A stretch of 64,000 bases of DNA from Candidatus Uhrbacteria bacterium (GCA_003518105.1 DOZH01000005.1:40513-104512); one strand, 5' to 3'; counted from the stretch's first letter, positions 2,338 through 41,308 are shown. Program-made: numbers and translations. Notes: generated by a model not told the origin, from the letters alone.

Positions 2338-2589
2338 TTATTGCCCCAAATTTTTCAGCGAAGTCCCGTCTGGTAGTTCAAGATGCTTTACTTTACTTGC
2401 GTGTCCTCTTTTTAATATCACAAACATTTTCGCCATTTTCAAGCTCTTCGCCACAAACGCCACCAACTCCTCATTCGCCTTTCCCTCCGTGGCCGGCGCA
2501 TGAATGGCTATCACCACTGTGCCCGAATCAAGCCAGCCTGTGACTTTTGTCTCCTTGGCATTCGGTTTGACATGCACGGTCAGGATCAT
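2338..2589 (-). CDS. DUF167 (YggU-like) protein
   Basis: 83 aa: VHVKPNAKETKVTGW...IAIHAPATEGKANEELVAFVAKSL, the typical YggU/DUF167 pattern. 4-nt overlap with the upstream regulator gene. Confidence 0.7.
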   Translation of the reverse strand: MILTVHVKPNAKETKVTGWLDSGTVVIAIHAPATEGKANEELVAFVAKSLKMAKMFVILKRGHASKVKHLELPDGTSLKNLGQ

Positions 2590-3425
2590 AGAGTAAAATT
2601 ACTAGTCGACGGCCGTTCAGCTTGAAACCACAGGTAATCAAAGACACTTTTCATCATCGTCGCTATCACATCGTCCTCAATCCTAATCGCCAATAAATTT
2701 TCCGGTTGCCAAAATATTACCTTATCCGCAAAAAAATGAAACGACGCTTTAAATGGATTCATACCGGTCAAAATCCTAGTTTCTCGCATATTCTCCCTAT
2801 CCTCGACCGCAATTCTATCCGCATTCGGCCCGGCTAAGGTTAATGTTCGTGACGTCAGCCCGCGCTTCACTCGTTCTTTTAGATATTCTCGCTGATCGTC
2901 CAGGTCGATTAGATTTAGAAAGTCATCCACATTGCCAAAGAAATCCAATCCATCCTTACCCTCATCCAACATTCCAAAGAACGCTCCAATATATTGCCCG
3001 CGGCCCTGATAAATTCGCACATGACTCGGTAAATCCCCTCGTTGATATTTACTTAACAAATCAGGTAGTAAAGACGCCAGGTTCTGTTTAGTTTTCTTAT
3101 CTCTTTCCAGCTTTTTCTCTAACAAATCCGCCACAAACGTCGGCGACGCTACTGAAAATCGTTTGAGTTTTCCACCGGCTGGCAAAGCAGCCAAACCCTT
3201 ATTTTCCAAGCCTTTAATCAGTTTATAAATATTTGGCCGCGAAATTCCCAATTTAGTGGCCAACTGGCCCAGCGGATGGGGCCCAATCTCTAGACTCACT
3301 ACATATAACTGAGCTTCCCCCTCTGTCAGTCCAAGTTGCCGTAACGCTTCGTATATTGCCAATTTATCATTTTGTCCTGTTTTCACCGCCATATAATCGA
3401 TTAACTGTATAACACTACTATACAT
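2586..3425 (-). CDS. TrmB-family HTH transcriptional regulator (paralog 1 of 6)
   Basis: N-terminal winged HTH LGLTEGEAQLYVVSLEIGPHPLGQLATKLGISRPNIYKLIKGLENKGL. C-terminal domain alignable by eye with the five other paralogs (closest to 34503..35279). Confidence 0.75.
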   Translation of the reverse strand: MYSSVIQLIDYMAVKTGQNDKLAIYEALRQLGLTEGEAQLYVVSLEIGPHPLGQLATKLGISRPNIYKLIKGLENKGLAALPAGGKLKRFSVASPTFVADLLEKKLERDKKTKQNLASLLPDLLSKYQRGDLPSHVRIYQGRGQYIGAFFGMLDEGKDGLDFFGNVDDFLNLIDLDDQREYLKERVKRGLTSRTLTLAGPNADRIAVEDRENMRETRILTGMNPFKASFHFFADKVIFWQPENLLAIRIEDDVIATMMKSVFDYLWFQAERPSTSNFTL

Positions 3426-3449
3426 TAATAGCTTATACCCAGCAATGCA

Positions 3450-3478
3450 TTGATTTTATTGTAAATTAATGATATAGT
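3450..3478 (+). promoter_or_regulatory. sigma70-like promoter of cargo operon 1
   Basis: TTGATT, 17-nt spacer, TATAGT. Lies in the AT-rich divergent region. Confidence 0.45.
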
Positions 3479-3580
3479 ATCATGTCGGATGTGAAATGTT
3501 CTCTCGTCCGAATACCAAAAACAGAAGAGACGAAAACCTTAATCCCACCAGCTATGTCGCTCGAAACCCAGGAGATCCCC

Positions 3581-4426
3581 ATGAATAATCTCGAAGTCTA
3601 TCGTCATCGTCTCGATTGTGAGTTGCAGCGCGCCAAGGCTCGTTTGGCCGAACTTCCGGTTGGTGAGGCCATCGAGGATTTCGATATCCGGGGTGAACTC
3701 TACGGCCTGGCTTGTGAGATCGCACCCCGTGCTCGTCAGGGTGACTTGCTAGCTATGCGCGAGTGGATGAACATCCGTGGCAACGAACGCATCGTCGACT
3801 TGGCTGCTGGCACCGGCTTCTTTACCAAAGACTTCTTATCACAAACCGCTGGCGAAGTTATCGCCGTTGATCCAAGCCAGATGCAGCTCGGCGTACTCGA
3901 TAAGGTTTGTGCTGGCCGTGCCCGTCTTTTGTTGGGCAGTCCTGACAGTCAGCAGGATATGTCGGTCATATCCGACACCAGTGTGGACGTGGTGTCGAGT
4001 TTCGGCGGGCTTCACCATGTCGCAGATCAACGAACCATGCTCGAGGAAGTTGCCCGTATCCTCAAGCCTGGCGGTCAGTTCACCGCCGCTGACGTCTGCG
4101 CTAACACCGCACTCGCTCGTCACTTTGATGAGTTCGTTGCCGCCAAGTGTCTTACCGGCCACACCGCCCAGTGGTTAGACGAGGCTAAATTGCGTGAGCT
4201 CGCCTCTGGCTTGCCCTTGCAGCTCGAACGAGTTGCCACTGTCCCACTCACCTGGAAGTTCGCCTCGCCCACAGAAATAGCTCTATTCTTCAAAGGCCTG
4301 CACGCCTACGATCTGAGCGAGCAGGAAATTATCGAAGACCTTAAGGCAGCCCTCGGCTTCACCACCGAGAACGGCCTGATCTGCCTCAACTGGCCCATGG
4401 TCTTCTTCCGTTTTGTTCGCATCTAA
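3581..4426 (+). CDS. Class I SAM-dependent methyltransferase (GC-rich cargo 1)
   Basis: Motif I VDLAAGTGFFTKDF and LKPGGQF. The ORF is open from 3482, but the GC shift and GGAG at 3571-3574 favour ATG 3581. Confidence 0.75.
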   Translation: MNNLEVYRHRLDCELQRAKARLAELPVGEAIEDFDIRGELYGLACEIAPRARQGDLLAMREWMNIRGNERIVDLAAGTGFFTKDFLSQTAGEVIAVDPSQMQLGVLDKVCAGRARLLLGSPDSQQDMSVISDTSVDVVSSFGGLHHVADQRTMLEEVARILKPGGQFTAADVCANTALARHFDEFVAAKCLTGHTAQWLDEAKLRELASGLPLQLERVATVPLTWKFASPTEIALFFKGLHAYDLSEQEIIEDLKAALGFTTENGLICLNWPMVFFRFVRI

Positions 4427-4437
4427 ACACTAACGTA

Positions 4438-4472: not shown

Positions 4473-4478
4473 TAACAA

Positions 4479-5333: not shown

Positions 5334-5342
5334 AAAATATGT

Positions 5343-5873
5343 TTAAGAGTTATCCTTAAAGCCAATCGGTTCACGCTCTTCTTCAACAAAAATCCCCTTC
5401 TTTTTCTTATTGTTTCGTCTTTGTAAGGCATCGAACACAATCCTAAACTGTTCATCGTAAGTCTTCTCCATAAACTCTACACGGAGACGAAGATGTTGAT
5501 CGTCTTGCGACATATTCCTGATACTAACAAAGGTTCTCATTATCTGAATATTAATCGCTATCGCCCGTTTGCTTGTTAATACACTAGATAGCATGGCGAC
5601 TCCTTGTTCTGTAAACATCAGTGGTTTATAGCGCAAACCTTGTTTATCAGCTTTGGAGGTCACAAATTGTGACCTCCAATTTTTCAGCTCAATCGCCGTC
5701 ATTTCGAATATAAAATCAGCAGGAAATCTAGATAAGTTACGTTTTACAGCCTGCTTTAACCGCTTTGTTTCGACACCATATAGTTTCGCTAAATCACGAT
5801 CCATCATGACCTTAGTTTCTCTCAAGACATAAATTTTATTTTCAATTAGCTCAACTGGTAGTAATGCCTTCAT
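5343..5873 (-). CDS. ORF6N-domain (KilA-N-like) DNA-binding protein
   Basis: IENKIYVLRETKVMMDRDLAKLYGVETKRLKQAVKRNLSRFPADFIFEMT matches the ORF6N pattern common in mobile or phage contexts. Confidence 0.7.
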   Translation of the reverse strand: MKALLPVELIENKIYVLRETKVMMDRDLAKLYGVETKRLKQAVKRNLSRFPADFIFEMTAIELKNWRSQFVTSKADKQGLRYKPLMFTEQGVAMLSSVLTSKRAIAINIQIMRTFVSIRNMSQDDQHLRLRVEFMEKTYDEQFRIVFDALQRRNNKKKKGIFVEEEREPIGFKDNS

Positions 5874-6548: not shown

Positions 6549-7319
6549 TTACCTCCCCGCAAACTCCCAAGCCATCGCAAAAATCGACCTCTGCGTTTCG
6601 TACATCGCCCCGTCATGAATCAATATCCCACCATACGGCGACTTGTGGGACATTATTGCCACCTTGCCGTCATAAATTTTAATCTCATTCGGCATCGCAT
6701 AAGTCTTCGGTACCAACCTCACCTCACGCAATTCTTCTCTACTAGCTTCGAAAAACTTTTTGCCTACATTTCCCTCATTTAATATCGCTTGCGTCCTCAC
6801 CCCAGCCGCCGTTCGCCTAGCAATATAATCACTGTAGTATTCCTTTAAGTTAGCCACCACTAAATCCGCATCACCAAAAGTTAAAATAGTTTCCTTAGCC
6901 GTTAGCGTATCCTCGAGCACCGTTTTCACCCCCTCAATTCCCGGGTAATACTGCACTCTTGGCTGCTTGGACGACACCCGTCCGGACAACGCCCGTAAAT
7001 CTGGCAATGTCTTTCGCAGGTCCTCGACACTTCTCTCCGCCTGTTTCAATAACAAGTCCGGCTCTTTAGCATAGAACAACTGCGTGCCATTTGTCTCGGT
7101 GGATCCCACCAACCCCCGCTTTTCCATCGCCTTCAATCCAACGTAAGTAGTGGACCTATTCATGCCCGTCTTCCTAGCAATCACACTGGCCGGCGCCTCC
7201 CCCAAAGCAGTACAGGCCACATATAAATCCGCCTCAGTCTGACTCAGGCCGACATTTTTGAGCGTCTCAGTGTATGCAATAGCCATAGTTGTTATATATA
7301 GTAACAGTATATAACTCAA
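6549..7319 (-). CDS. TrmB-family HTH transcriptional regulator (paralog 2)
   Basis: LKNVGLSQTEADLYVACTALGEAPASVIARKTGMNRSTTYVGLKAMEKRGLV. Probable true start is the ATG at 7286 (MAIAYTE). Confidence 0.75.
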   Translation of the reverse strand: MSYILLLYITTMAIAYTETLKNVGLSQTEADLYVACTALGEAPASVIARKTGMNRSTTYVGLKAMEKRGLVGSTETNGTQLFYAKEPDLLLKQAERSVEDLRKTLPDLRALSGRVSSKQPRVQYYPGIEGVKTVLEDTLTAKETILTFGDADLVVANLKEYYSDYIARRTAAGVRTQAILNEGNVGKKFFEASREELREVRLVPKTYAMPNEIKIYDGKVAIMSHKSPYGGILIHDGAMYETQRSIFAMAWEFAGR

Positions 7320-7369
7320 TAATAAAGCTGTAAATAGGGCTTATACACAGCAACGCACACCACACAGTT

Positions 7370-7398
7370 ATTGAAATTAACACTAAAATATGGTATAG
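7370..7398 (+). promoter_or_regulatory. sigma70-like promoter of cargo operon 2
   Basis: TTGAAA, 17-nt spacer, TATAGT. Confidence 0.45.
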
Positions 7399-7476
7399 TA
7401 CTTTGTCGAGTGAGAGCGCTTCTGCTCACACTCGGCCCCACCACCCATCGCCGACAACCTCGGTACGGAGATTCAC

Positions 7477-7947
7477 ATGGACGCTTCCCTTACTTCCATT
7501 CTCGCCCCCGAAGCCCTCATGATCGACGGTGACGCACCGCCAGTCGAGCCCTACTGGGCACAACTCGGCAAGACAGTGCAAATGCCATGCGGCCAGGTTG
7601 ATCCTGCAACCCTTGTCTTCTTCCAGACAGAGGAGATGAAGAACGGTGATAGCACCCCTGGTCTCGACCTGTCGGACAAGATCCGCCAGGCCAAGCTCAA
7701 GCCTGTCAACGCCAACGTCGCCGTATTCCTTGAGGCCCATCAGGAGTTTCTGGCTAGCGTGCCGAGGGGAATCGATTACCTGGTTTTCACAGAATCGCAA
7801 TTCCTCCGCTGGAACAACCTTCCGTCCTTCCAGTGCTTGCGCCGATGGAAAGACGGGCGATGGTACCCCTTCGACTACATCACCTGGCAAAGATACGGTG
7901 GCGAGGACGCTGCCGTGGCCTTCCGAGTCGACGAACCCACCAAGTAG
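7477..7947 (+). CDS. Hypothetical protein, family A copy 1
   Basis: 156 aa. Paralog of 8616..9062: shared LMIDGDAxPxVEPxWA, PCGQVDP, LFQTEEMK and identical C-terminus VAFRVDEPTK. GGAGATTCACATG ribosome-binding context. Confidence 0.6.
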   Translation: MDASLTSILAPEALMIDGDAPPVEPYWAQLGKTVQMPCGQVDPATLVFFQTEEMKNGDSTPGLDLSDKIRQAKLKPVNANVAVFLEAHQEFLASVPRGIDYLVFTESQFLRWNNLPSFQCLRRWKDGRWYPFDYITWQRYGGEDAAVAFRVDEPTK

Positions 7948-7953
7948 GCCTCT

Positions 7954-8040
7954 GCGTGAGGGTCGAGTAGTGCACTCTACTCCCCTCGCGCCCCCTTCCG
8001 AGGCGTCGAATTATCGACGTTTCAGATCCGGTCAACCACT
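7954..8040 (+). promoter_or_regulatory. Intercistronic double-hairpin element, copy 1
   Basis: GCGTGAGGG-TC-GAGTAG-tgcact-CTACTC-C-CCTCGCGC, then CCCCTTCCGAGG, then CGTCGA-atta-TCGACG, then TTTCAGATCCGGTCAACCAC. Confidence 0.7.
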
Positions 8041-8068
8041 ACGCCGACAACTTCGGCACGGAGACAAC

Positions 8069-8422
8069 ATGTTGTTCGACACCATTACCAGCTTCATCAA
8101 GAATGGCGCTCCTCACCAACTCACTACTGGTGACCATCTCCTGTTCCTCCATCGGGGAAATCCTGGCAATAAGCACTACTCTCTCGAGGTTGTCTTCAGG
8201 ACGGGTGGTTATGGAGCTTCTAGCGGCGACATCTGCGCGGTCCACAATACCTGTGGTTTCGTGCAGAATATCGCGTACTTGCCGATTACCCGTCAGCGTT
8301 GGATCGACGTTCTTGCATCACAAGATCGTCTGGCTGATCGCCTGAACATCGACTTCGTTCTAGGTGAAGTTTCTCCAATGTTCTGCAACAACCTACTTTT
8401 CGACGTGAAGCCGAGGACGTAG
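8069..8422 (+). CDS. Hypothetical protein
   Basis: In-frame ATG preceded by CGGCACGGAGACAAC. 117 aa (MLFDTITSFIKNGAPHQL...). The longer 7646 start runs through the upstream gene and the element. Confidence 0.5.
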   Translation: MLFDTITSFIKNGAPHQLTTGDHLLFLHRGNPGNKHYSLEVVFRTGGYGASSGDICAVHNTCGFVQNIAYLPITRQRWIDVLASQDRLADRLNIDFVLGEVSPMFCNNLLFDVKPRT

Positions 8423-8450
8423 TTTTGGAGAATGCCTTACTAGGCAGTTC

Positions 8451-8490
8451 GCGTGAGGGTCGAGTGGTTTACTCCACTCCCCTCGAACCC
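8451..8490 (+). promoter_or_regulatory. Intercistronic element, degenerate hairpin-1-only copy
   Basis: GCGTGAGGGTC-GAGTGG-tttact-CCACTC-CCCTCGAACC. The lower stem is partly decayed. Confidence 0.5.
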
Positions 8491-8508
8491 ATTAGTGAAC
8501 AAACCCTC

Positions 8509-8600
8509 GCGTGAGGATCAAATGCTGCACCGCATTCTCCTCGCGCCCCCTTCCGAGGCGTCGAATAGTTCGACGTTTCAGATCTGGCCAACCACCCCAC
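8509..8600 (+). promoter_or_regulatory. Intercistronic double-hairpin element, copy 2
   Basis: GCGTGAGGA-TCA-AATGC-tgcacc-GCATT-C-TCCTCGCGC (compensated GAGGA/TCCTC), then CGTCGAA-tag-TTCGACG, then TTTCAGATCTGGCCAACCAC. Confidence 0.7.
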
Positions 8601-8615
8601 ATCCCAGGAGTTTCT

Positions 8616-9062
8616 ATGCTTACCAACCTCATGATCGACGGTGACGCGGCCCCAGAAGTCGAGCCTAACTGGGCTGTGGCTAGCAAGACCGCACACACTC
8701 CTTGCGGTCAGGTAGATCCCACCAAACTCATCTTATTCCAGACGGAAGAGATGAAAAGAGGTGGTCGTTCTGAGGGCACAGTGCTTTCTGACCTGGCTTG
8801 CCAGGCTGGGCTCAACCCCATGAACGCCAATGGGGCCACCTTCCTCAAGAGGCACAAAAAGTTCCTAGCCAAGGTTCCGAAGACGATCAAGTATCTGATT
8901 TTTCCAGAGACGAAATACTTCTGCGGAAATGGATTCTGGTTCTTTCTGTGCCTAGACAGGAGTGCTACCGGGAAGTGGGAATTCAAGCTGAATCGCATCG
9001 TCAACAGCTACTGCGGTCAGTGCGCAATCGTGGCTTTCCGAGTCGACGAACCCACCAAGTAA
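8616..9062 (+). CDS. Hypothetical protein, family A copy 2
   Basis: 148 aa from the ATG after GGAGTTTCT. Paralog of 7477..7947. Confidence 0.6.
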   Translation: MLTNLMIDGDAAPEVEPNWAVASKTAHTPCGQVDPTKLILFQTEEMKRGGRSEGTVLSDLACQAGLNPMNANGATFLKRHKKFLAKVPKTIKYLIFPETKYFCGNGFWFFLCLDRSATGKWEFKLNRIVNSYCGQCAIVAFRVDEPTK

Positions 9063-9068
9063 GCCCCT

Positions 9069-9155
9069 GCGTGAGGGTCGAGTGTTGCACCACACTCCCC
9101 TCGCGCCCCTTTCTGAGACGCCGAATAGTTCGACGTTTCAGATCTGGTCAACCAC
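9069..9155 (+). promoter_or_regulatory. Intercistronic double-hairpin element, copy 3
   Basis: GCGTGAGGGTC-GAGTGT-tgcacc-ACACTC-CCCTCGCGC, then CGCCGAA-tag-TTCGACG, then TTTCAGATCTGGTCAACCAC. Confidence 0.7.
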
Positions 9156-9185
9156 CACGCCGACATGATCGGCACGGAGCACATC

Positions 9186-9494
9186 ATGAAAATTCGTACT
9201 GAAGCTGGTAAGGCCTACAAGTTGGTCGCCGGTGATCGCCTGCGCATCATCGATCGCTCGGATTGCGGCTACGGTTCGTTCAATCTGGAGCTGGAATCGG
9301 CTGTACGCGGCCGTCTTCACTTCATTGAGGATTACGGACCGAACAACTACAGGCGAACCAATGCTCTCTTCTTTTCAGGAGATTGCAGGAACCAGGTTGT
9401 CGACCTCATCTGTTACCTGTCTCACTTGAGCATCGCTCGTCGAGACACCAGCAGTGAGGCGTGCGATTACCTCGAGCTCGCTGCGAGCAAGTGA
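9186..9494 (+). CDS. Hypothetical protein
   Basis: ORF open from 9165. The ATG at 9186 follows CGGCACGGAGCACATC, as in sister genes. 102 aa (MKIRTEAGKAYKLVAGDRLRIID...). Confidence 0.5.
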   Translation: MKIRTEAGKAYKLVAGDRLRIIDRSDCGYGSFNLELESAVRGRLHFIEDYGPNNYRRTNALFFSGDCRNQVVDLICYLSHLSIARRDTSSEACDYLELAASK

Positions 9495-9500
9495 GCCCCT

Positions 9501-9585
9501 GCGTGAGGGTCGAGTGCTGCACCGCACTTCCCTCGCGCCCCTTTCCAAGTCGTGGATTATCGACGCTTTGGATTCGGTCTTCAAC
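9501..9585 (+). promoter_or_regulatory. Intercistronic double-hairpin element, copy 4
   Basis: GCGTGAGGGTC-GAGTGC-tgcacc-GCACTT-CCCTCGCGC. The second hairpin is weakened (GTCG...CGAC). Confidence 0.65.
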
Positions 9586-9598
9586 TAACAAACCAAAT

Positions 9599-10291
9599 AT
9601 GACCACCGTCGCCGCCACAGACCTCAACTACCATCGTTATTCCCTCACCAAATACGATCGCGACATCGTCAACGCTATTCCCTTTCATCGCGAGCTTCAT
9701 GAGCGCCTCGTGTCTATCATCGAAGCTCATTTTGCCGCCACAAAAACCTACAACATCCTGGACCTCGGCGTCGGCACCGGCCTCACGACCAAGCTCATCA
9801 AAGACTATTTACCCCAGTCGCATTTTGACGTCGTCGACTTCTCCGACAACATGTTGCAATGCGCCAAACAACGCCTCGGCCCAGTCAACGTTGATTATTT
9901 CTTAGGTGACTATGCCCTCCTCGACTTCACCAAAAAATACGACCTGATTACTTCCGTCATCGGCTTACATCACCAAGACATGGCTGGCAAGCGCATACTC
10001 TTCGCTAAAATCTATAATCTCCTTGAGCCCGGTGGCCTCTTCATCTTAGGCGACCTCATGACGCACCAAAACCCGCAGCTTAACGCCGTAGCCACAGCTC
10101 GCCACTATCATCACCTAGTCGAGCGCGCCACAGACGAGCAAACTCTCACCGACTGGGCGCACCATCATCTCTATCTCAACCAACTCGACACTCTCGAGGA
10201 TCAAAAGCTGTGGCTCGAATCAGCCGGCCTCAAGGTCGAAGTCGCTTTTCAAGAGTGGCACACGGCATTGCTTGTTTGTCGCAAAACCTAA
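9599..10291 (+). CDS. Class I SAM-dependent methyltransferase (last gene of cargo operon 2)
   Basis: Motif I ILDLGVGTGLTTKLI and LEPGGLFILGDL. ORF open from 9461, but that stretch overlaps the upstream element; the ATG at 9599 is preferred. Confidence 0.75.
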   Translation: MTTVAATDLNYHRYSLTKYDRDIVNAIPFHRELHERLVSIIEAHFAATKTYNILDLGVGTGLTTKLIKDYLPQSHFDVVDFSDNMLQCAKQRLGPVNVDYFLGDYALLDFTKKYDLITSVIGLHHQDMAGKRILFAKIYNLLEPGGLFILGDLMTHQNPQLNAVATARHYHHLVERATDEQTLTDWAHHHLYLNQLDTLEDQKLWLESAGLKVEVAFQEWHTALLVCRKT

Positions 10292-11049: not shown

Positions 11050-11130
11050 TTATGACAACAGAAATATAGCATATAATCCCAAAATTAACAACAAATAGCC
11101 AAAACAGCGAACACCATCACCATAAATCTG

Positions 11131-11159
11131 TCGACAATCACGACAAATTATGCTATATT
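11131..11159 (+). promoter_or_regulatory. sigma70-like promoter of cargo operon 3
   Basis: TCGACA, 17-nt spacer, TATATT. Confidence 0.4.
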
Positions 11160-26776: not shown

Positions 26777-26784
26777 ATTGAAGT

Positions 26785-30878: not shown

Positions 30879-30885
30879 GCGTCGT

Positions 30886-32886: not shown

Positions 32887-34338
32887 TTATTTATCGTTCA
32901 TTAAGTAGCTCGTCATCTCGCCCAGCAACTTGTACGTCTTCACCTTGATCGACTCCTGCGTCTTCCAGCCTGCTCGGTAAGCCAGCACATTATTCGCCAA
33001 CTCTTTATGCAGCTTCCAGTCTTTCTTATCCGTCATCGGTAGCCCTAAAATATCTTTCCTTGGCAAGCCTGGGTAGACGTCGAGATAAGCGAATATTTCT
33101 TTCTTCGTCATTCTCTCGGTCAACGCTGTCTGGTCGATGGCATTCCCATCCGCCGTATTAATGAACATCGCCACGTTCTTCATCGCCTCGATGAACTTCT
33201 TATCGATCACATTCTCTGCCTTATGTGCTGGCACATGAAGTGAAATGACATCACTCACTCTTGCTAGTTCATTAATCTCTTTATATTTAATGCCGAGCCT
33301 CTCTTCGATTACTTCATTTCGCCGCTTCGAATAGTAGATAACCTCGAAGCCTAAACCCTTCGCCATCCTCGCCACTTGCTCACCAATCCTTCCTAGTCCC
33401 ACGAGTCCAAAAATCTTATCGGCGAATTCATAATCGGACGTTACTAGAGAATTGACGTCGACCAACTTCCTAGGCCACATCTTCTCTATCTTAGTGACCT
33501 CAGCTTCAGGTGTTAATCGTTTATCATAGTAGATGAGTTCATTCTCCGCCAAAAACTTATAGGTCGACGCTAGCGTAAAGTCGGTAATGCTTCGCTCTTC
33601 GATGATGACGCCAAACGTTCGTAAAGCTTTCACGGTCTCCTCGGCCTTTTCAATATTCATCAGGCCAATCATCTTATGCTCAATCATCCTCTCTGGAATC
33701 AACTGCTCTAAACTCTTCTTAGCAAAGTCGAACTTAACTTGCCCCAACTTATGAAAGTGATGTGAGAACTTTCCCAGCCTCGTATTCTTCTCATTCTCAG
33801 GCAGCATTCGAATGCGAGTAAACACGTCATTCAAAATCGCATTTGCCAGTCCCACTTCACTACTAGCCGAGCCATCACTCGCATAATTCCTCATCAATAA
33901 CTGCCACATGCCAGCAAACACCACTTCAGCCACCGCTTCCGTGCCATAGTCAGGAATATTCTTCACCTCAATTCCCAACTCGCGAGCGAGGTCGACGTTA
34001 ATCCTGTGCTCCTTTTCATGCGTCCAAAAAATAACCAGCTTTAATTGCGGGTTCAATCTTAATATCTCATCCGGAATATTCGTCCAGCAACTAACAATCA
34101 CCTCAGCTCCCTCCACCCGATTCATCAACAACTGCAGCGGCGTATTATTCGCGCCGAGCTCGGTGTAACACTTAGTCTCGGCAAACAACTCTGGCTGTTC
34201 ACTAAATTGCTGTTCTAATCTCTCTGGCAAACTCGACGGAAACTCCAACACCTCCTCCGCCAGTTTATTCAACAGCGCACGATGCTCCGGGTAAAATATG
34301 ACAGTATCGAGTATCACCACTTTCTTAAACTTCTTCAT
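32887..34338 (-). CDS. D-isomer-specific 2-hydroxyacid dehydrogenase-like protein with an extra N-terminal domain
   Basis: C-terminal half has FGLVGLGRIGEQVARMAKGLGFEVIYY and ISLHVP...FINTADGNAIDQTAL. 483 aa is longer than the usual family size. Confidence 0.65.
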   Translation of the reverse strand: MKKFKKVVILDTVIFYPEHRALLNKLAEEVLEFPSSLPERLEQQFSEQPELFAETKCYTELGANNTPLQLLMNRVEGAEVIVSCWTNIPDEILRLNPQLKLVIFWTHEKEHRINVDLARELGIEVKNIPDYGTEAVAEVVFAGMWQLLMRNYASDGSASSEVGLANAILNDVFTRIRMLPENEKNTRLGKFSHHFHKLGQVKFDFAKKSLEQLIPERMIEHKMIGLMNIEKAEETVKALRTFGVIIEERSITDFTLASTYKFLAENELIYYDKRLTPEAEVTKIEKMWPRKLVDVNSLVTSDYEFADKIFGLVGLGRIGEQVARMAKGLGFEVIYYSKRRNEVIEERLGIKYKEINELARVSDVISLHVPAHKAENVIDKKFIEAMKNVAMFINTADGNAIDQTALTERMTKKEIFAYLDVYPGLPRKDILGLPMTDKKDWKLHKELANNVLAYRAGWKTQESIKVKTYKLLGEMTSYLMNDK

Positions 34339-34502
34339 AGCAAATTCTTCTCATTATTAGCCGCAAACATGTCAGATCAAAAAACGTCACTGACCAAGTA
34401 GAATATCATAATTATACGTAAAAGTCAATGTAATTGCACTATAATTTGGCCTGATGTATAATAAAAATATACGCTAGTTACACAAATAAGCGCAAAATCC
34501 CT

Positions 34503-35279
34503 ATGATTACCAACACCGAGGTGAAACAAAATCTTTACACTTCCCTCAAGGAACTCGGTCTCACCGAGAGCGAAGCCAACCTCTACCTCACCTCCTTAAC
34601 CCTCGGCTCCGTCACCATCGTCTCTTTAGCCGAGCATCTCAGCATGCCCAGGCCCAACGTCTACAAAGTCATTGCCGGGCTGGAAAAGCACGGTTTAACT
34701 AAGTTTTCCGAACGTAAAAAGCAATCTCGCACTTTTGTAGTGGAGCCGCCAACCGTCGTCCTGGAACTATTACGCCGTAAACGCGAAGCCATGGCCAGCT
34801 TGGACCAAACCCTCGTCGGTTCCATGCCAGACCTGCTCGCGCTCTACCATCAAGGCGAAACCCCCACCAAAATCAAAGTTTACGAGGGGGAGGACCAGTG
34901 GAATAAAATTTTCTTTAAAGTTCTGGACGAAGCTAAAGATAAAATCGACTTCTTTGGTTCCGCCGACGCTTTCATCGGCCTCATCTCCTGGGAAACCGAA
35001 CTCGAATGGATCCGCCTCCGCACCAGCAAAAACATTCACATGAATTCCCTCCTCACCCCCGGCGCCGACGCTGCCACGCTCGTTCAAAACGACAAACTCC
35101 AAATGCGCACCACGCGCATCTTCCAAGGCACCCTCCCCTTCGTCACCGGCTTCATGCTCTACGCCAACAAGGTAATCATCTGGCAGCCCAAAGCCCCCCT
35201 CGCCGTCCTCGTGGAAGATGAATACATCGTGGCCATGCTCCGCAGCATCTTCGCCGCACTGTGGACACAAAGTGCATAA
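34503..35279 (+). CDS. TrmB-family HTH transcriptional regulator (paralog 4)
   Basis: LKELGLTESEANLYLTSLTLGSVTIVSLAEHLSMPRPNVYKVIAGLEKHGL. Confidence 0.75.
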   Translation: MITNTEVKQNLYTSLKELGLTESEANLYLTSLTLGSVTIVSLAEHLSMPRPNVYKVIAGLEKHGLTKFSERKKQSRTFVVEPPTVVLELLRRKREAMASLDQTLVGSMPDLLALYHQGETPTKIKVYEGEDQWNKIFFKVLDEAKDKIDFFGSADAFIGLISWETELEWIRLRTSKNIHMNSLLTPGADAATLVQNDKLQMRTTRIFQGTLPFVTGFMLYANKVIIWQPKAPLAVLVEDEYIVAMLRSIFAALWTQSA

Positions 35280-35285
35280 ACTCTC

Positions 35286-35378: not shown

Positions 35379-35705
35379 TTAAATAGCTAGTATTTTTCTT
35401 AACTTATCTTTCACTAACTTATAAGCAGTAGTCTCTAATTTACCAAGTTCTCCCAACACAATCTTTTTCTGTAAAGTAGCAATCTTATCCGTCCTAATAA
35501 ATGAGTCAGCCTTCAGGCCATTAGTTTGACTAGCCTTAATCCGAACATCAAAATTACCCAATTTGGCCTGTTTGACGGATGAAATGAATACCACAATGAA
35601 ATCCTCACCGCCTTTTTGTTCATAGAGCACCAAGCCGGGCCGTACTTTATGGCCAGACAGGTCGCTAAAAGGAAACGGTATTAAGACAATATCTCCTTTA
35701 GACAT
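35379..35705 (-). CDS. PemK/MazF-family toxin
   Basis: MSKGDIVLIPFPFSDLSGHKVRPGLVL, typical of the MazF/PemK N-terminus. Confidence 0.8.
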   Translation of the reverse strand: MSKGDIVLIPFPFSDLSGHKVRPGLVLYEQKGGEDFIVVFISSVKQAKLGNFDVRIKASQTNGLKADSFIRTDKIATLQKKIVLGELGKLETTAYKLVKDKLRKILAI

Positions 35706-35949
35706 AGCTTTTCTTAAGATCAGCTACTGAATATAGATCTGGTTCCTCGTTTAGGAAATCAAAACTCCGCGACAAAGCATTAATATTTGTAATCTCGTTC
35801 AAATTTTTATTGTAATGATTGGGAAATTGAATGACAATGGCATCAATAGAATTACGTCGACCAATTCCAAAAACTTCTCCGTGCATTTTTACACGGTCAA
35901 TCACCTGCTTAATATTCTTTCGAGCCTCAGTAGTAGTAATAACCTGCAT
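35698..35949 (-). CDS. Putative cognate antitoxin
   Basis: 8-nt overlap with the toxin gene. MQVITTTEARKNIKQVIDRV resembles Phd/YefM-type N-termini. ORF open to 36021. Confidence 0.55.
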   Translation of the reverse strand: MQVITTTEARKNIKQVIDRVKMHGEVFGIGRRNSIDAIVIQFPNHYNKNLNEITNINALSRSFDFLNEEPDLYSVADLKKSYV

Positions 35950-36022
35950 ATGTACAAATTGTACAATATTGCACAATGAAGCGCAAGACCAGGCCAAAAT
36001 AAGCCAAATAAACATCTCCATC

Positions 36023-36125: not shown

Positions 36126-37646
36126 TTACGCAAAAGCACACTGCCAAGCCTCAATCGTCTGCACATCGGACGACTCCTTCACCCACCGGATCATGCCCTC
36201 CTCGATCTTACGAGCAGTCATGTCGTTGGTGTTGTGGTGGGTGCTGAACAGGTTGTAGCCTGCCCAGTCGTCCGGGTGGACGATGTTGTGGCCGTTGCGT
36301 TCGAACCACCTGGTGCCGGGCAGCATGGTGGCGGACAATGGCAGCGCCGTGTCGAGGTACCCGTCCACAATCAACTTCCTGGAAGCAGCCATGTCTTCCG
36401 CGAACGTCTCGTGTGTCTGGTCTGGCGTACCGACCATGATGCTCGTCAACACGTACACTTTCGCCGAGCGCAGCTTTTTCAGGTTCTCCTTGCTGTTCTC
36501 GTACTTCGTGGTCATCGACCCTGCTGAGCTCTGCTTCTCGTTTCCCTGCCGCGGATTAAACGGCACATACAGTGAGAAACACTTGCCCGGCCTACCGTCG
36601 TTGTACGCCATGATAGCCGCAGTGACCTCATCCGACAGGCTCTCGAACTCGACGCCTCCGTTGTCGGACCACGAAAGTCCCCGCTGCTTCATCTCCCCGA
36701 GCAAGGGAATGAAGAACTCCTTCGGGCGGGAGAGAATCGCGTCGTCTTGCAGCACGATCTCCTGGTAGCCGCAGGCCACAAAGTGGTCGAGCTGCTGCCG
36801 GATCTTGTCCCAACCTGACTGCGTGACTTTCTGTTCCGGACGCCCGGCAAAGCAGAATTCGCAATGACGGTAGCACCCACGGCTGGCCATCCAGTCAATC
36901 GACTTCAACCCCGAGGGGAAGTTGTGCGTCGGCGGGGTGGAGTAGCCAGCGTCGGCCAAGAGGTCGCAGTTCATGACCGGGTACGCCTCCATCTTCTGGA
37001 AGCCCCCTGGCACGATCTTGTCCTTCAGTCGACCGGCCATCATGGCCTCAATGGTCGTGATTGCATCTCCCTCTGCCACGTGGTCGACCCACGGGTTGTC
37101 CCGCACGAATTTCACGGGATCGGCCGTGATGTGCTGACCGCCCATGACAACGCGGACGTGCGGCAATTCCCGCTTGATCCGCGCGCCGAGCGAGGTCGCA
37201 GCCAAGTAGTTGGCGGACGCCGCGAGCGGAATACCCACGGCCTCGATGTGGTGCCGGCGCAGGTACTCAATCGTCTCCTCCTCGGGGATGCCGATCCGCG
37301 CGATGATGCGCTGCACGCTGCCATCTTCCCTGAACGCCGAGTACTTCTTGATGAAGTCAGTCGACGACAGCTTGTGGAAGTCGTACATCTTCTCCTCATG
37401 CACTTCCCCCCACGTCCGGTTGAGGGCTTCCTCGTGGATGCCGCGCTGACCTGGCCACAGCGTGCGAACGCAGAGCTCACGCCGTTGCCAGCCACCGTTG
37501 TGGACGGACTCGTCCAGGAAGTGGACCTTCCAGCCCTTATTGAAAAGTAGCGAGGCCATCAAGGCCGGACCAATCTGCACTCCGCCACGGGGCGGCTCAT
37601 GGATGGCATCGACCTGGCGCAGGGGAGAAACGAATGCGACGTTCAT
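36126..37646 (-). CDS. B12-binding-domain radical SAM enzyme (GC-rich cargo 5)
   Basis: 506 aa. N-terminal cobalamin-binding-type region, then ASRGCYRHCEFCFAG (CxxxCxxC). Several overlapping ORFs are GC artefacts. Confidence 0.75.
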   Translation of the reverse strand: MNVAFVSPLRQVDAIHEPPRGGVQIGPALMASLLFNKGWKVHFLDESVHNGGWQRRELCVRTLWPGQRGIHEEALNRTWGEVHEEKMYDFHKLSSTDFIKKYSAFREDGSVQRIIARIGIPEEETIEYLRRHHIEAVGIPLAASANYLAATSLGARIKRELPHVRVVMGGQHITADPVKFVRDNPWVDHVAEGDAITTIEAMMAGRLKDKIVPGGFQKMEAYPVMNCDLLADAGYSTPPTHNFPSGLKSIDWMASRGCYRHCEFCFAGRPEQKVTQSGWDKIRQQLDHFVACGYQEIVLQDDAILSRPKEFFIPLLGEMKQRGLSWSDNGGVEFESLSDEVTAAIMAYNDGRPGKCFSLYVPFNPRQGNEKQSSAGSMTTKYENSKENLKKLRSAKVYVLTSIMVGTPDQTHETFAEDMAASRKLIVDGYLDTALPLSATMLPGTRWFERNGHNIVHPDDWAGYNLFSTHHNTNDMTARKIEEGMIRWVKESSDVQTIEAWQCAFA

Positions 37647-37758: not shown

Positions 37759-37769
37759 CAGGAAAGTTG

Positions 37770-37988
37770 TTACAGATCTCGCATGAGTTCTTCGGCCAGT
37801 TTTTTACGAAAGGCTGAAACTTCGGACTTAAACCCCCATCTACTAGAGGTCCAACTATACGTCACTCCGTGCCGAAAAAAATCACTGGGGTAGAACGGCA
37901 CGACCTCCTCAGGCAGGCTTCCCAGACTGCGTTTGGGAATAATTGTTTGTTGACCGTCATGGTGATTAATTGTCCTGAACAGCAACAC
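37770..37988 (-). CDS. Hypothetical ORF, probably the true C-terminal part of the upstream gene (frameshifted)
   Basis: The -1 frame relative to 37862..38263 reads protein-like (IIPKRSLGSLPEEVVPFYPSDFFRHGVTYSW...KKLAEELMRDL). It stops 11 nt before the conserved element, as in sister operons. Confidence 0.4.
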   Translation of the reverse strand: MLLFRTINHHDGQQTIIPKRSLGSLPEEVVPFYPSDFFRHGVTYSWTSSRWGFKSEVSAFRKKLAEELMRDL

Positions 37989-38263
37989 CGCCCAATCTCG
38001 CCATTTTCTTCAACCATGACATCCCACCACAGAGCTGGCATCTCACCGAACCTGAGTTCGATCTTCTTTTCTCCTACATCGAGGTATCGCCAGGGATACC
38101 CGCTGTTGTCCCACATGCCCTTTGAGGGTATTTCGGTGATCAGTCCATCAGGCAGCTCCTGCGTTTTAAGTTCATCCTTATATCGGTCTGCGATATCGTT
38201 GGCAGTCTTGATCACATTGTTTGAGTAGCCACTATTGCTGCTACATTCATGAATCGTTGCCAT
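37862..38263 (-). CDS. Hypothetical protein, first gene of cargo operon 5 (3' part doubtful)
   Basis: AGGAGGCCACCATG start context. After about residue 92 the translation turns Cys/Arg-rich (GRCCCSGQ...CLRRSCRS), while the -1 frame looks more natural. Confidence 0.45.
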   Translation of the reverse strand: MATIHECSSNSGYSNNVIKTANDIADRYKDELKTQELPDGLITEIPSKGMWDNSGYPWRYLDVGEKKIELRFGEMPALWWDVMVEENGEIGRCCCSGQLITMTVNKQLFPNAVWEACLRRSCRSTPVIFFGTE

Positions 38264-38334
38264 GGTGGCCTCCTGAGTCTTTGTGTAACTTGTCGAACCG
38301 GGCCAATCCCTGCTCGACTAAATACAATACCATT

Positions 38335-38363
38335 TTTTACCTCTTTCGTCAACTAATATGTGC
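38335..38363 (-). promoter_or_regulatory. sigma70-like promoter of cargo operon 5
   Basis: Minus-strand reading: TTGACG, 17-nt spacer, TATTGT. Confidence 0.4.
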
Positions 38364-38423
38364 ATAACTCCCAACAAAACTCAAATAATCAACAAACAAA
38401 GCATTATCTGCTGATAAAAATAA

Positions 38424-39239
38424 TTGACAACATGGTCATTTTTGGCTAAGATGACTTATATGACCAATCCCAAAGAACTCTTAAGCTACTTCTCCGTCAC
38501 GCCCGACGAAGCCGATATTTACTTAGCTTTGCTTAAACTCGGCACCGCCGCCGTGTCAGAAATTGCCAGTAAAATTAAAAAAAACCGCACCGCCACGCAC
38601 TTTCACCTCAAAAAACTCCTAGCTAAAGAGTTAGTTATCGAATCCAATCACGGCCGCACTCTACTCTACACCGCCATTCCACCAGCCGATCTTGCCGCTC
38701 GTTTCGACCGCTTAACTACAGACTTTAAGAGCCTCGTCCCCCAGCTCGAAGCCCTCCAAACCATCGAAGTCGACGCCCCCCGCGTCCAAGTTAGCGAATC
38801 GCGGGCCGGCTACTTCAAAGTTTATGATGAAATCTCTTCTCTCCCTGAAGGTTCAACTTTCTACGTCATCGAAGGAGCGACAGCATTAAATAGCGAGCTG
38901 ACTCTCTTAAGCAACACCGAAACTACTAACTTCTTCTCCAAAATCATCGCCCGCAAAATAGCCACTAAACTCATCCTCACTGCTGAAGCCACCCAAATCC
39001 CCAACACCCTCATCTCGCCCACCAACCTCGTCTTACTCCACCAGCGCGAAATGAGTGTCCGCACCTATCCAGAATCAGCCCTACCCTTCCAGGGCCTCAC
39101 TATTATGTACGGCAGCACCCTCGCCTACCTCTTCCCGCAAACCAACTTGGTCGTCACCATCAAACACGCCGGCATCGCCGACTCTTTTAAGGCTACTTTC
39201 GACACTCTCTTCACCCTCGGCCAGGAATATAAGTTCTAA
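38424..39239 (+). CDS. TrmB-family HTH transcriptional regulator (paralog 5)
   Basis: VTPDEADIYLALLKLGTAAVSEIASKIKKNRTATHFHLKKLLAKELV. Likely start at 38451 or 38460. Confidence 0.7.
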   Translation: MTTWSFLAKMTYMTNPKELLSYFSVTPDEADIYLALLKLGTAAVSEIASKIKKNRTATHFHLKKLLAKELVIESNHGRTLLYTAIPPADLAARFDRLTTDFKSLVPQLEALQTIEVDAPRVQVSESRAGYFKVYDEISSLPEGSTFYVIEGATALNSELTLLSNTETTNFFSKIIARKIATKLILTAEATQIPNTLISPTNLVLLHQREMSVRTYPESALPFQGLTIMYGSTLAYLFPQTNLVVTIKHAGIADSFKATFDTLFTLGQEYKF

Positions 39240-39263
39240 TTTTATTAATGCTTAAAAGAAGAA

Positions 39264-39299
39264 GCCCCGATCCACGCTGTGCAAGCGTAGAATCGGGGC
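39264..39299. terminator. Bidirectional hairpin between regulator 5 and radical SAM 2
   Basis: GCCCCGAT-ccacgctgtgcaagcgtaga-ATCGGGGC, flanked by A/T runs. Confidence 0.5.
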
Positions 39300-39371
39300 A
39301 ACGTTAGGGTTGGTGCACTCTTGGTCCCGCGAACCCTATCATCGCGGGAGAGGTTGGAAACTGGCATCTGC

Positions 39372-40385
39372 CTACAGATCATCACGCCCAGGGCGGTACA
39401 TCTGCAAGTATGCCTTCGTTTCCTCCGGCGACACGAATTGGCGGTGGCTGGTGTCCCTCGCATTATTGTGCGTGTCCATCGACCCGTCCGGCTTCATGTA
39501 GCCGTACGTTGCTTCGGTCTCAGACTCGTTCCCAATCGCGAGGTCGCCGAGCATGACTCGGATCCCGCTCTCGCAGTGTTTGAACTCGAACGTCCGCCCT
39601 TGGGCGTTGTGACGTGCAAATTCCGACACAAACGTGAAAGCGTTGCTCTTCATCACGTCGGCCACCAGCTCGTCGAACTGGGCTCGGTGGTCATCTGTCC
39701 ACTTCATGACTTCCTGACTGCCAGGTGTGGTCTGCTCATTTCTAATTGGCAGACTAAACATGTCACTGAAGTAACAGATCCCGACGCCGAGACGGGCGGC
39801 CCAGCTGACAAACTCCTCGACCTGTTGCACAGAATCGATGAACCCGTCAGCCAACACCGTCCGCGTCATCACCCGCATGCCCTTACGGACAATCGCGGGG
39901 ATTAACGTCTCGAAGTCTACATCGGCCATCGCGGGACCACTGATCACCTCCTTCTGCTCGCGCGTCAGGCCGTGTACGGAGAGGTTGATATCCTTGAGCC
40001 CCATCTCAGCCAGCCGGTCAAGGAACGTCTGCCCGCCGCAGCCCATGATCGGCCGAAGAAGTTTAACGGCGTTCGTGTACACCGCCAGGAGCTCCAGCTC
40101 CACCCCGCGCGCCTCGGTCCGCTCCCGCACGATCCGCAGCGATCCGAACAACTTCCCGGGCGCGTCGGTGGGCTCCCCACCCCCGGTCAAGATGACCTTG
40201 CGGCCACCGTTCTCGAGGTAGATGTCGAGGTTGTCCTCGAACCGCTGCAGGAAAGCCTCTTGTCCCGCCTCGATAACGACCGGCCGAATGGTCGGGCTGC
40301 AGAACGTGCAGCGCCCGTCGCTGCAGAGGTTCGTGAGCTCGACCTTCATTTCTGTCCCTGAAAAGCTAATAGGCTTGCAGTCCAT
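39372..40385 (-). CDS. Radical SAM-like enzyme with a CX4CX2C cluster motif (GC-rich cargo 6)
   Basis: VELTNLCSDGRCTFCS near the N-terminus, then ILTGGGEPT (GGE-type SAM motif). AGGAGGTCACCATG start context. Confidence 0.65.
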   Translation of the reverse strand: MDCKPISFSGTEMKVELTNLCSDGRCTFCSPTIRPVVIEAGQEAFLQRFEDNLDIYLENGGRKVILTGGGEPTDAPGKLFGSLRIVRERTEARGVELELLAVYTNAVKLLRPIMGCGGQTFLDRLAEMGLKDINLSVHGLTREQKEVISGPAMADVDFETLIPAIVRKGMRVMTRTVLADGFIDSVQQVEEFVSWAARLGVGICYFSDMFSLPIRNEQTTPGSQEVMKWTDDHRAQFDELVADVMKSNAFTFVSEFARHNAQGRTFEFKHCESGIRVMLGDLAIGNESETEATYGYMKPDGSMDTHNNARDTSHRQFVSPEETKAYLQMYRPGRDDL

Positions 40386-40570
40386 GGTGACCTCCTAGGT
40401 CGGTTATTTGTTGTGTAACTCGGGCCCGGTTGCTATCCCCAGGCTGTAACCATAATATCCTAAAAGCGGACTTTTGTCCAGAAAAAAGACACTAAATTAT
40501 AGTAAATTACCAAATAGCTTGTGTTAGTTAGCTAATATGCTACACTACTGTTGTCTAAATAACGGACAGT

Positions 40571-41308
40571 ATGAATACAATCACCTCTCTCACTCGTTTG
40601 GGCCTCTCCACCAACGAGGCTAAAATCTACGTTTGCCTCCTAAAAATCCTGGAAGGTACCGTCTTCGAAATCGCTAAACACTCCGGTATTCCTCGCACGA
40701 CCACTTATACCACCCTCGAATCTCTCAAAGTTCAGGGCCTAGTTACTGCTTTTCGCAAAAATAACGTGCAGTATTTTACACCCGAGAATCCCAAGCAAAT
40801 CCTCACTATACTTCAACACAAACAAGAAATCATCAATGAAATTCTCCCGTCTTTACAGGCCTTATCCCTCGGCACAGACGTTCAGCCATCCGTCAAAATG
40901 TTCACTGGTACACAGGGCATGAAGCTGGCTTTTGAGGACATCCTGGATACTCTTGAGCAAACAGACCAGCGCATTCTTTATGCTGCCGCTTTTCCTGATG
41001 TTATGGATGCTTTGCCTAGGTATTATCACTCTTGGGTTAAGCGTCGTGAAGAGCTTGGCGTAACCACAAAAATGATTCTGCCGGAGTCATCGCGCGAACG
41101 CCGGGCTTTCTACGAAGGGCATAATCGCCAAGTAAAGTTCATGCCCGAGCCGTATCTCTTTGAATGCGCCATGGACATTTACGGCCATAAAATCGTCTTC
41201 TTTGCTCTCCGCGAAGGTACCACCTACTCCATCATTCTCGAATCTCCCACTATCGCCGCCGCCTTTCTCAAATTCTTCCTCTTTGCCTTTGACCACCTCC
41301 CAGAATAG
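40571..41308 (+). CDS. TrmB-family HTH transcriptional regulator (paralog 6)
   Basis: LTRLGLSTNEAKIYVCLLKILEGTVFEIAKHSGIPRTTTYTTLESLKVQGLV. Confidence 0.75.
   Translation: MNTITSLTRLGLSTNEAKIYVCLLKILEGTVFEIAKHSGIPRTTTYTTLESLKVQGLVTAFRKNNVQYFTPENPKQILTILQHKQEIINEILPSLQALSLGTDVQPSVKMFTGTQGMKLAFEDILDTLEQTDQRILYAAAFPDVMDALPRYYHSWVKRREELGVTTKMILPESSRERRAFYEGHNRQVKFMPEPYLFECAMDIYGHKIVFFALREGTTYSIILESPTIAAAFLKFFLFAFDHLPE

Follow-up and report, generated by a model that had tools for sequence, protein, structure and literature searches.

In the review of the TrmB family of transcriptional regulators, the members presented as characterised are all archaeal (PMC4158304). TrmB and TrmBL1 act as local or global repressors on palindromic, promoter-overlapping operators from which they are released by effectors (PMC4158304), and TrmBL2 (TK0471/PF0496 of the Thermococcales) is one abundant, highly conserved chromatin protein with little DNA specificity (PMC4158304, PMC3031468). 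The present analysis concerns a 64,000-nucleotide (nt) stretch of the genome of a Candidatus Uhrbacteria bacterium (GCA_003518105.1, DOZH01000005.1:40513-104512), which is called the window below and encodes six TrmB-type regulators (TrmB1 to TrmB6), each facing a neighbouring gene or operon, the cargo of its module. With a probability of about 0.7, the six are old, diverged paralogs which serve as local repressors beside small accessory operons and which represent a lineage-specific expansion of a known regulator family. The cargo is a heterogeneous accessory metabolism that turns over between related genomes and includes radical S-adenosylmethionine (SAM) enzymes, small-molecule methyltransferases, a dehydrogenase, atypical receiver-domain proteins and orphans. 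In the preliminary description of the stretch, made from the sequence alone, such a combination was not recognised as any described operon type; however, a local repressor that controls its own gene and stands divergent to its target is a classical bacterial design.

The same layout is found in the TetR-, MarR-, LysR- and IclR-type pairs, with back-to-back promoters in a short AT-rich spacer, palindromes on both promoters, co-inheritance of the regulator and its target, and targets belonging to accessory metabolism or transport. Unlike these pairs, the modules of the window employ another protein family, their regulator mRNAs appear to be leaderless or nearly so, and the paralog density is unusually high, with six genes within 39 kb in a genome of the ~1-Mb class. 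Full-length relatives (22-26% identity across 84-92% of the query) are present in cultured bacteria as uncharacterised ~250-aa genes with a TrmB-type helix-turn-helix (HTH) in Azospirillum, Cupriavidus, Paraburkholderia and the Bacillus cereus group. Those are single copies beside transporter genes, such as the Azospirillum relative divergent from an ATP-binding cassette (ABC) transporter operon and the B. cereus relative adjoining azlCD, and not clusters beside SAM enzymes. The whole family comprises 3,573 clusters (50% identity) at E <= 1e-30, and related genomes also carry two or three paralogs inside a few kilobases. A literature search combining TrmB with taxa of the Candidate Phyla Radiation (CPR) found no paper mentioning both.

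Six regulators with the TrmBL2 architecture

Exactly six TrmB-type open reading frames (ORFs) were found by a family hidden Markov model search of the window. All of them match the Pfam family TrmB (PF01978; E 4e-9 to 6e-14, 36.6-52.1 bits against a gathering score of 25.6) and can be aligned end to end at pairwise identities of 17-40%, which bears out the earlier assignment of six TrmB-family proteins with an N-terminal winged HTH (wHTH) and an alignable C-terminus. The ORFs described at first are likewise all real, but four of the starts had to be shifted, to 3392, 7286, 11037 and 38460, according to the public gene calls and the N-termini of orthologs. The recent tandem duplication of one cassette was ruled out by the low identity between the paralogs.

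The profile of the six proteins is aligned end to end with the TrmBL2 structures 5bpd/5box (E 2e-10), the recognition-helix Tyr being matched, and the AlphaFold model of TrmB5 (pLDDT 91.6) gives TrmBL2 as the top fold match (E 2.5e-13) and TrmB (3qph) as the second. In this model, the helix 78-105 joins the wHTH to the C-terminal domain and superposes on TrmBL2 and TrmB, which makes it the predicted dimerisation helix of the TrmB-family type, while the C-terminal domain taken alone resembles phospholipase D (PLD)-like folds. The likeness to TrmBL2 thus extends to a length of ~260 aa, the N-terminal wHTH with its recognition Tyr, the long dimerisation helix and the C-terminus, which consists of one PLD-like domain and lacks the sugar-binding barrel. 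The conserved DNA-recognition Tyr is Y50 of Pfu TrmB/TrmBL2 (PMC4158304); the corresponding R-x-x-x-Y motif of the recognition helix, aligned with PRTY of TrmBL2, is present in five of the six regulators. The TrmB5 clade has His in place of this Tyr and also differs in its palindrome, with a spacing of N13 instead of N9.

The DNA-binding domain PF01978 is shared with the sugar-sensing TrmB, with TrmBL1 (Tgr) and with Halobacterium TrmB. However, the sugar-sensing TrmB is ~340 aa long and has PF11495, with a C-terminal barrel and defined sugar-binding residues, whereas the six paralogs have 245-268 aa and none of them gave a Pfam match to PF11495 at E <= 0.01. The NCBIfam equivalogs of TrmB/TrmBL1 were scored at 18-38 bits, far from the cut-offs of 500-650, and the best scores for the TrmBL2 equivalog NF041141 were 17.4 and 18.9 bits against a cut-off of 530, so that TrmBL2 orthology is unsupported. 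Accordingly, the six have the TrmBL2 architecture but are neither sugar sensors nor TrmBL2 orthologs. Unlike TrmBL2, with which the identity is only ~17%, they are diverged bacterial paralogs having clade-specific palindromes at their own and at the neighbouring promoters.

In some relatives of 510-1,079 aa (P0124, P0128, P0130, P0132, P0136, P0139), a single N-terminal wHTH is followed by 3-7 tandem C-terminal domains of ~135 aa, and two copies of this domain are found in P0238 and P0254 (370 and 412 aa); the C-terminal domain thus behaves as an autonomous, repeatable module. A DUF167 gene (PF02594, YggU-like, 2338-2589) lies downstream of TrmB1 with a 4-bp overlap, and since this pair is kept in the orthologous loci L066 and L067, TrmB1 is probably co-transcribed with DUF167.

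Promoters and candidate operators of the divergent spacers

All six regulators are divergent from their neighbours across spacers of 32-42% GC, and in each of the spacers a sigma-70-like promoter with 17-nt spacing faces the cargo (general form TTGnnn-17-TAnnnT; the -10 is TG-extended in 5/6), as had been read from the sequence at the outset. The regulator-side promoters are readable in the orthologous alignments, and the regulator mRNAs appear to have either no leader or a very short one. Thus, the -10 of TrmB5 ends 7 nt upstream of the start at 38460 (window 38447-38462), which makes the TrmB5 mRNA probably leaderless, and nearly all orthologs of TrmB5 have a TTGACA-17-TAnnnT promoter whose end lies ~7 nt from the ATG; TrmB2, TrmB3 and TrmB6 have ~20-nt leaders occupied by a palindrome, with no clear Shine-Dalgarno sequence.

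The palindromes are characteristic of the clades and stand at fixed positions (Table 1). The form TGTY-N9-RACA occurs 10 times in the window, where 3.9 were expected and 10 were reached by none of 100 shuffles, and half of these sites fall in the ~1.1 kb of the regulator-cargo spacers 2, 3 and 6. In the 200 nt upstream of 44 non-redundant family genes it was found 13 times against 0.65 expected; its first position was almost always -19 to -21 relative to the start codon, and second copies lay around -100, on the cargo -35. The TrmB3 ortholog in L016 has a TGTC-N9-GACA palindrome at -20, and the orthologous TrmB6 spacers, read by eye, retain the regulator-side copy (O1) in 10/10 cases and the cargo-side copy (O2) in 7/10. 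In the TrmB1/TrmB4 clade, GTATA-N7-TATAC covers the regulator -10 in all seven loci, and the TrmB1 ortholog locus L066 has the identical TGTATA-N7-TATACA palindrome at -32. In the TrmB5 clade, an exact TGTY-N13-RACA lies over the regulator's own -35 in 10 of 17 loci (0.29 expected). Spacers 2, 3 and 6 each hold the palindrome twice; in module 4 the second copy is imperfect.

Such conserved clade palindromes on the regulator promoters and, in some modules, on the cargo promoters are the signature of autoregulated local repressors. Each paralog would be a dimeric, sequence-specific repressor binding the palindrome of its clade. The copy on its own promoter or very short 5' end would provide autorepression, and the second copy on the cargo -35/-10 (modules 2, 3, 6 and, imperfectly, 4) would repress the accessory operon, while the PLD-like C-terminal domain may be the sensor of a derepressing signal. 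Family membership, fold, gene order, promoters and the conserved palindromes are direct results of the analysis; we infer the binding of the proteins to the palindromes, the negative sign of the regulation and the existence of an effector.

Cargo genes, their turnover and their composition

The domain assignments made initially for the cargo were correct for the two class I methyltransferases, the five-gene operon, the 2-hydroxyacid dehydrogenase, the B12-binding radical SAM enzyme and the second radical SAM enzyme, and the receiver-like (REC-like) call in module 3 is backed by a family profile. The fusion of a methyltransferase with a short-chain dehydrogenase/reductase (SDR) in module 4 is also real, but an IS3-type insertion sequence (IS) lying within it had been overlooked; its removal in silico restores the 511-aa ORF. 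The methyltransferase of module 1 gave no NCBIfam equivalog match. The B12 enzyme has weak NCBIfam similarity to C- and P-methylases and to the maturases of ribosomally synthesised and post-translationally modified peptides (RiPP). The 337-aa radical SAM family of module 6 has a conserved CX4CX2C (C21, C26, C29) replacing the canonical CX3CX2C, no obvious second-cluster cysteines in the family alignment, and a MoaA-like fold at 15% identity without a substrate hint. For the eight orphan cargo proteins, the Pfam scan gave no match; in operon 2, the first and third proteins (156 and 148 aa) are paralogs with 53% identity, each followed by an orphan of ~100-117 aa, an apparent duplicated two-gene unit (7477-9494). 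The atypical stand-alone receiver family, whose profile matches receiver domains of the PDB (E 2e-6), is recognised by the motifs DD...DxxMP, TDxxHHxHP and a C-terminal KDW, with CxxC insertions in some members. Its proteins are the most frequent divergent neighbour of the TrmB paralogs in Uhrbacteria.

It had been proposed that the cargo consists mostly of SAM-using enzymes and that the modules form a dedicated, ligand-gated expression platform for taking up horizontally acquired modification enzymes, an explanation which we now regard as unlikely. Within the window the SAM link is evident: SAM-dependent enzymes make up 5 of the 13 cargo genes and occur in five of the six modules (with the IS-split fusion counted once), whereas the ~40 other non-regulator genes have no SAM-enzyme family on record, a few near the window end never having been scanned (hypergeometric p ~5e-4, post hoc). 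Outside the window, this link is not characteristic of the family. The loci used for comparison were those of the TrmB5 clade and those fetched with the 337-aa radical SAM protein as bait, so that the neighbour statistics are small and partly biased. Among ~26 regulator-neighbour pairs not fetched with this bait, only ~5 have a SAM enzyme, and atypical receiver-domain proteins are at least as common. Most neighbours are not SAM enzymes and include receiver-like proteins, orphans, transporters and, in some relatives, a sigma factor. Among the remoter relatives, the facing genes encode a periplasmic binding protein, a TauE-type exporter (accompanied by a 202-aa protein with a PRPP-binding-like motif, read by eye) or orphans, or no divergent gene is present. 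On the other hand, three radical SAM families adjoin Uhrbacteria TrmB paralogs, the B12 type, the 337-aa type and a third of 454 aa facing another paralog in L066, and the link for radical SAM enzymes in Uhrbacteria is therefore suggestive.

The modularity proposed at the same time is supported, units being gained, lost or re-equipped between related genomes. The B12 radical SAM enzyme is faced by TrmB5 orthologs in only 3 of 15 distinct loci, and the promoter region and leader are kept while the first genes differ, being a receiver-like protein, an orphan or another gene, with the receiver-like gene preceding the B12 enzyme in L010. This constancy of the promoter beside variable first genes also favours the platform. 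In L066, the TrmB1 ortholog faces a receiver-like protein and not a methyltransferase, and L010 has no TrmB6/radical SAM module. Other combinations persist: the TrmB6-radical SAM pair is also retained in L017, the pairs of TrmB4 with the 2-hydroxyacid dehydrogenase and of TrmB5 with the B12 radical SAM enzyme recur in L010, L017 and L021, and the TrmB4-dehydrogenase pairing is kept in L010/L015.

The visibly GC-richer and foreign-looking character ascribed to the cargo did not hold. The mean GC at third codon positions (GC3) is 0.661 in cargo versus 0.595 in core genes and 0.555 in the regulators (Mann-Whitney p = 0.03 and 0.02), but the ranges of cargo and other genes overlap widely, and in module 4 the cargo has a higher AT content than the regulator. 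The two radical SAM genes reach a GC3 of 0.79-0.82, which would suit the platform; the cargo values are equalled by core or unrelated genes (DUF1292 0.84, hyp177 0.85), and in codon usage the cargo genes do not stand farther from the core (p = 0.13, the tendency being the opposite one). The true compositional outliers in the window are ORF6N, Fic, HigBA, PemK toxin-antitoxin and AIPR genes, which are AT-rich, with a GC3 of 0.32-0.45 versus ~0.6 in the core, and are interleaved with the modules.

Relatives were compared for one cargo gene, that of the 337-aa radical SAM protein, whose homologs with 50-85% identity reside on Parcubacteria-type contigs. In the bait-fetched set with contigs of 42-53% GC (n=10, with L032 excluded as short, of mixed composition and having the same radical SAM ORF as L033), 8 of the 10 loci show it divergently paired with a TrmB6-like gene; in one of the others a TrmB4-like gene lies ~0.8 kb upstream and in the other there is none. 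The gene is GC-richer than its locus in most of these contigs, including those of distant Uhrbacteria relatives, and this recurrence indicates that the GC offset is old. In low-GC Parcubacteria, the homolog has no TrmB neighbour; in three of these loci (L034, L037, L042), and also in L044, it adjoins a gene which, by eye from the (N-terminal) sequence, is SDR-like. Thus, the composition of the cargo being ordinary and this homolog family CPR-resident, horizontal acquisition of the cargo is not supported on the present evidence. The platform is further opposed by the age of the paralogs, which show no copied cassette, and by the lack of an effector-domain match in Pfam.

As to the setting, the window represents an uncultivated groundwater bacterium, Candidatus Uhrbacteria (Patescibacteria/CPR): genes identical to those of the window were found on contigs of the project PRJNA292723 and the JGI sample 3300009031, and the orthologs are named by their sources as Candidatus Uhrbacteria or Patescibacteria. 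The window starts inside dnaA, dnaN being just outside by the gene calls, so that it lies beside the replication origin region; since the GC skew is also negative along nearly its whole length and the cumulative skew falls steadily, the entire stretch belongs to a single replichore next to the origin. Five long co-directional ORFs (304-1,042 aa) with hydrophobic N-termini occupy 52720-62569.

Table 1. Positions of the regulators, cargo genes, promoters, palindromes and other features (window numbering unless a comparison locus is named)
Feature	Position	Strand	Details
TrmB1, TrmBL2-like regulator	2586-3392	-	268 aa, likely start 3392, ORF reaches 3425; PF01978, gene calls, start checked
TrmB2 regulator	6549-7286	-	245 aa; PF01978, gene calls
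TrmB3 regulator	10288-11037	-	249 aa; PF01978, gene calls
TrmB4 regulator	34503-35279	+	258 aa; PF01978; sister paralog of TrmB1, 40% identity
TrmB5 regulator	38460-39239	+	likely start 38460; PF01978, ortholog N-termini
TrmB6 regulator	40571-41308	+	245 aa; PF01978
Cargo promoter 1, TTGATT-17-TATAGT, TG-extended	3450-3478	+	15-bp palindrome 3469-3483 overlaps -10
Cargo promoter 2, TTGAAA-17-TATAGT, TG-extended	7371-7399	+	followed by hairpin/palindrome 7405-7436
Cargo promoter 3, TCGACA-17-TATATT	11131-11159	+	-35 overlapped by TGTC-N9-GACA palindrome
Cargo promoter 4, TTGACT-17-TATTCT, TG-extended	34400-34428	-	imperfect GAATA-N7-TATAC (34401-34417) overlaps -10
Cargo promoter 5, TTGACG-17-TATTGT, TG-extended	38324-38352	-	followed by hairpin/palindrome 38292-38318
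Cargo promoter 6, TGGACA-17-TATTAT	40480-40452	-	-35 covered by O2 palindrome
TGTATA-N7-TATACA palindrome, candidate auto-operator	3406-3424	.	covers -10 of TrmB1's own promoter
TGTT-N9-AACA palindrome (O1)	7290-7306	.	immediately 5' of TrmB2 start codon
AGTT-N9-AACA, relaxed second copy, module 2	7366-7382	.	over cargo -35
TGTC-N9-GACA palindrome (O1)	11041-11057	.	immediately 5' of TrmB3 start codon
Second TGTC-N9-GACA palindrome, module 3	11129-11145	.	overlaps -35 of cargo promoter 3
GTATA-N7-TATAC palindrome, candidate auto-operator	34456-34472	.	upstream of TrmB4
TGTY-N13-RACA copy with one mismatch	38409-38429	.	over TrmB5's own -35
TGTC-N9-GACA palindrome (O2)	40475-40491	.	over -35 of cargo promoter 6
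TGTC-N9-GACA palindrome (O1)	40552-40568	.	ends 2 nt before TrmB6 start codon
Class I SAM methyltransferase, cargo 1	3581-4426	+	281 aa; Pfam Methyltransf_11/25/23
Five-gene cargo operon 2	7477-10291	+	gene calls
Orphan genes of operon 2	7477-7947, 8069-8422, 8616-9062, 9186-9494	+	no Pfam match for the four
Class I methyltransferase, last gene of operon 2	9599-10291	+	Pfam
Orphan protein, cargo 3	11219-11764	+	181 aa; gene call
Atypical receiver-domain (REC-like) protein, cargo 3	11890-12360	+	family profile
CMAS-type methyltransferase/SDR fusion, cargo 4	30139-32881	-	511 aa intact; fragments 31745-32881, 30139-30588; Pfam CMAS, Methyltransf families
IS3-family insertion sequence	30563-31766	+	1,204 bp; TG...CA inverted ends, 3-bp TCC target duplication, orfA/orfB, rve integrase domain
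D-2-hydroxyacid dehydrogenase-like protein, first cargo gene of module 4	32887-34338	-	483 aa; Pfam
Orphan protein, cargo 5	37862-38263	-	133 aa; no Pfam match
B12-binding radical SAM enzyme, cargo 5	36126-37646	-	Pfam
MoaA-like radical SAM enzyme, cargo 6	39372-40385	-	337 aa; CX4CX2C cluster motif
Receiver-family members	11890-12360; L010:5092-5805; L013:5285-5815; L019:3072-3833; L066:7204-7869		
Receiver-family member in L023	202-aa ORF starting 238 nt upstream of TrmB5-like gene at 6001		
AT-rich outlier genes interleaved with modules	5343-5873, 12622-13794, 26471-27063, 35379-36015, 48796-50007		

Weighing of the repressor reading and its meaning

Several points weigh against the reading of the paralogs as local repressors. 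In modules 1 and 5, a clear copy is seen on the regulator side alone, and no convincing second operator was found on the cargo side. In several palindromes, the GACA half is at the same time a part of the -35 hexamer TTGACA, and for this reason part of the palindrome conservation could be promoter conservation. Every cargo leader opens with a hairpin or palindrome directly after the -10, which could be an operator or an RNA element instead. Apart from chance and common descent, the repressor model offers no explanation of the SAM enrichment among the cargo of the window. TrmBL2, the nearest relative of solved structure, is a chromatin protein that binds DNA largely without specificity, and the searched literature contains no experimental evidence for any bacterial TrmB-family member.

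As regards the leaders, their hairpins are individually significant only in modules 2 and 5, and the alignment of TrmB5-clade leaders across orthologs revealed neither a consensus structure nor covariation. Similar 5' hairpins are also present at two promoters without a TrmB neighbour, those of hyp177 and hyp161, and an RNA element is therefore not claimed. The Rfam scan of the window yielded tRNAs only, with no known riboswitch, including the SAM riboswitches, in the cargo leaders. The orphan hyp177 (29510-30133) has its own TG-extended promoter (30133-30105) and a very stable 5' hairpin at 30064-30101 (-27 kcal/mol for the initial 45 nt), that is, the design of a cargo leader without an adjacent TrmB gene; the leader of hyp161 (25820-26305) is of similar design.

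Less probable still than the platform is the assumption that the modules belong to a single, dispersed pathway of biosynthesis, for instance of a modified peptide or lipid, with each step under a paralogous regulator. It would agree with the weak resemblance of the B12 enzyme to C-/P-methylases and RiPP maturases, and with the co-occurrence of a second radical SAM enzyme, three methyltransferases, a dehydrogenase and small Cys-containing orphans. However, the six modules are spread over 39 kb with housekeeping genes interleaved, and their presence and absence are independent, as shown by the absence of module 6 from L010 and by the receiver-like protein replacing the methyltransferase in L066. 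In addition, no precursor, protease or exporter was recognised, and one of the enzyme genes is inactivated by the IS.

That the paralogs are TrmBL2-like nucleoid-associated chromatin proteins, placed near accessory genes incidentally, is highly improbable, even with TrmBL2 being the best structural and sequence match and having an equal length and domain layout. The recognition helices are strongly diverged among the six paralogs, the regulator-target pairs are stable, and the TrmBL2 equivalog is matched with 17-19 bits instead of 530; the palindromes proper to each clade, which orthologs share at fixed promoter positions, likewise argue against a sequence-independent coating of DNA of the TrmBL2 type. 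The least credible alternative, an anti-phage defence island with regulator-enzyme pairs as the defence systems, was prompted by the interspersed toxin-antitoxin, Fic, AIPR and ORF6N genes and by restriction-modification methylases just past dnaN, and was dropped after the PADLOC scan, which gave generic methyltransferase and radical SAM domain matches only and none for the orphans, the defence-like genes being AT-rich and clearly unlike the modules in composition, and the modules being syntenic with core genes in relatives.

With the paralogs understood as local repressors, no new kind of genetic system is revealed, and the value of the locus is modest, consisting mainly in testable operator predictions for CPR bacteria. 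To our knowledge, transcriptional regulation in CPR/Patescibacteria is almost unexplored, and the locus provides six natural regulator-promoter pairs whose predicted operators are concrete and could be tested without culturing. It also draws attention to two uncharacterised protein families, the atypical receiver domains and the CX4CX2C MoaA-like radical SAM proteins. A wider interpretation is speculative and rather doubtful, though somewhat less so than the platform for acquired enzymes: the TrmBL2-like family of Uhrbacteria might be the main local control of a flexible gene pool, a stable "socket" composed of the regulator, a TGT-N(11-15)-ACA spacer code and a structured leader, downstream of which receiver-like, radical SAM, methyltransferase and orphan genes are exchanged, with the receivers possibly serving as a partner or relay. 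If true, this would represent a regulatory architecture specific to the CPR.

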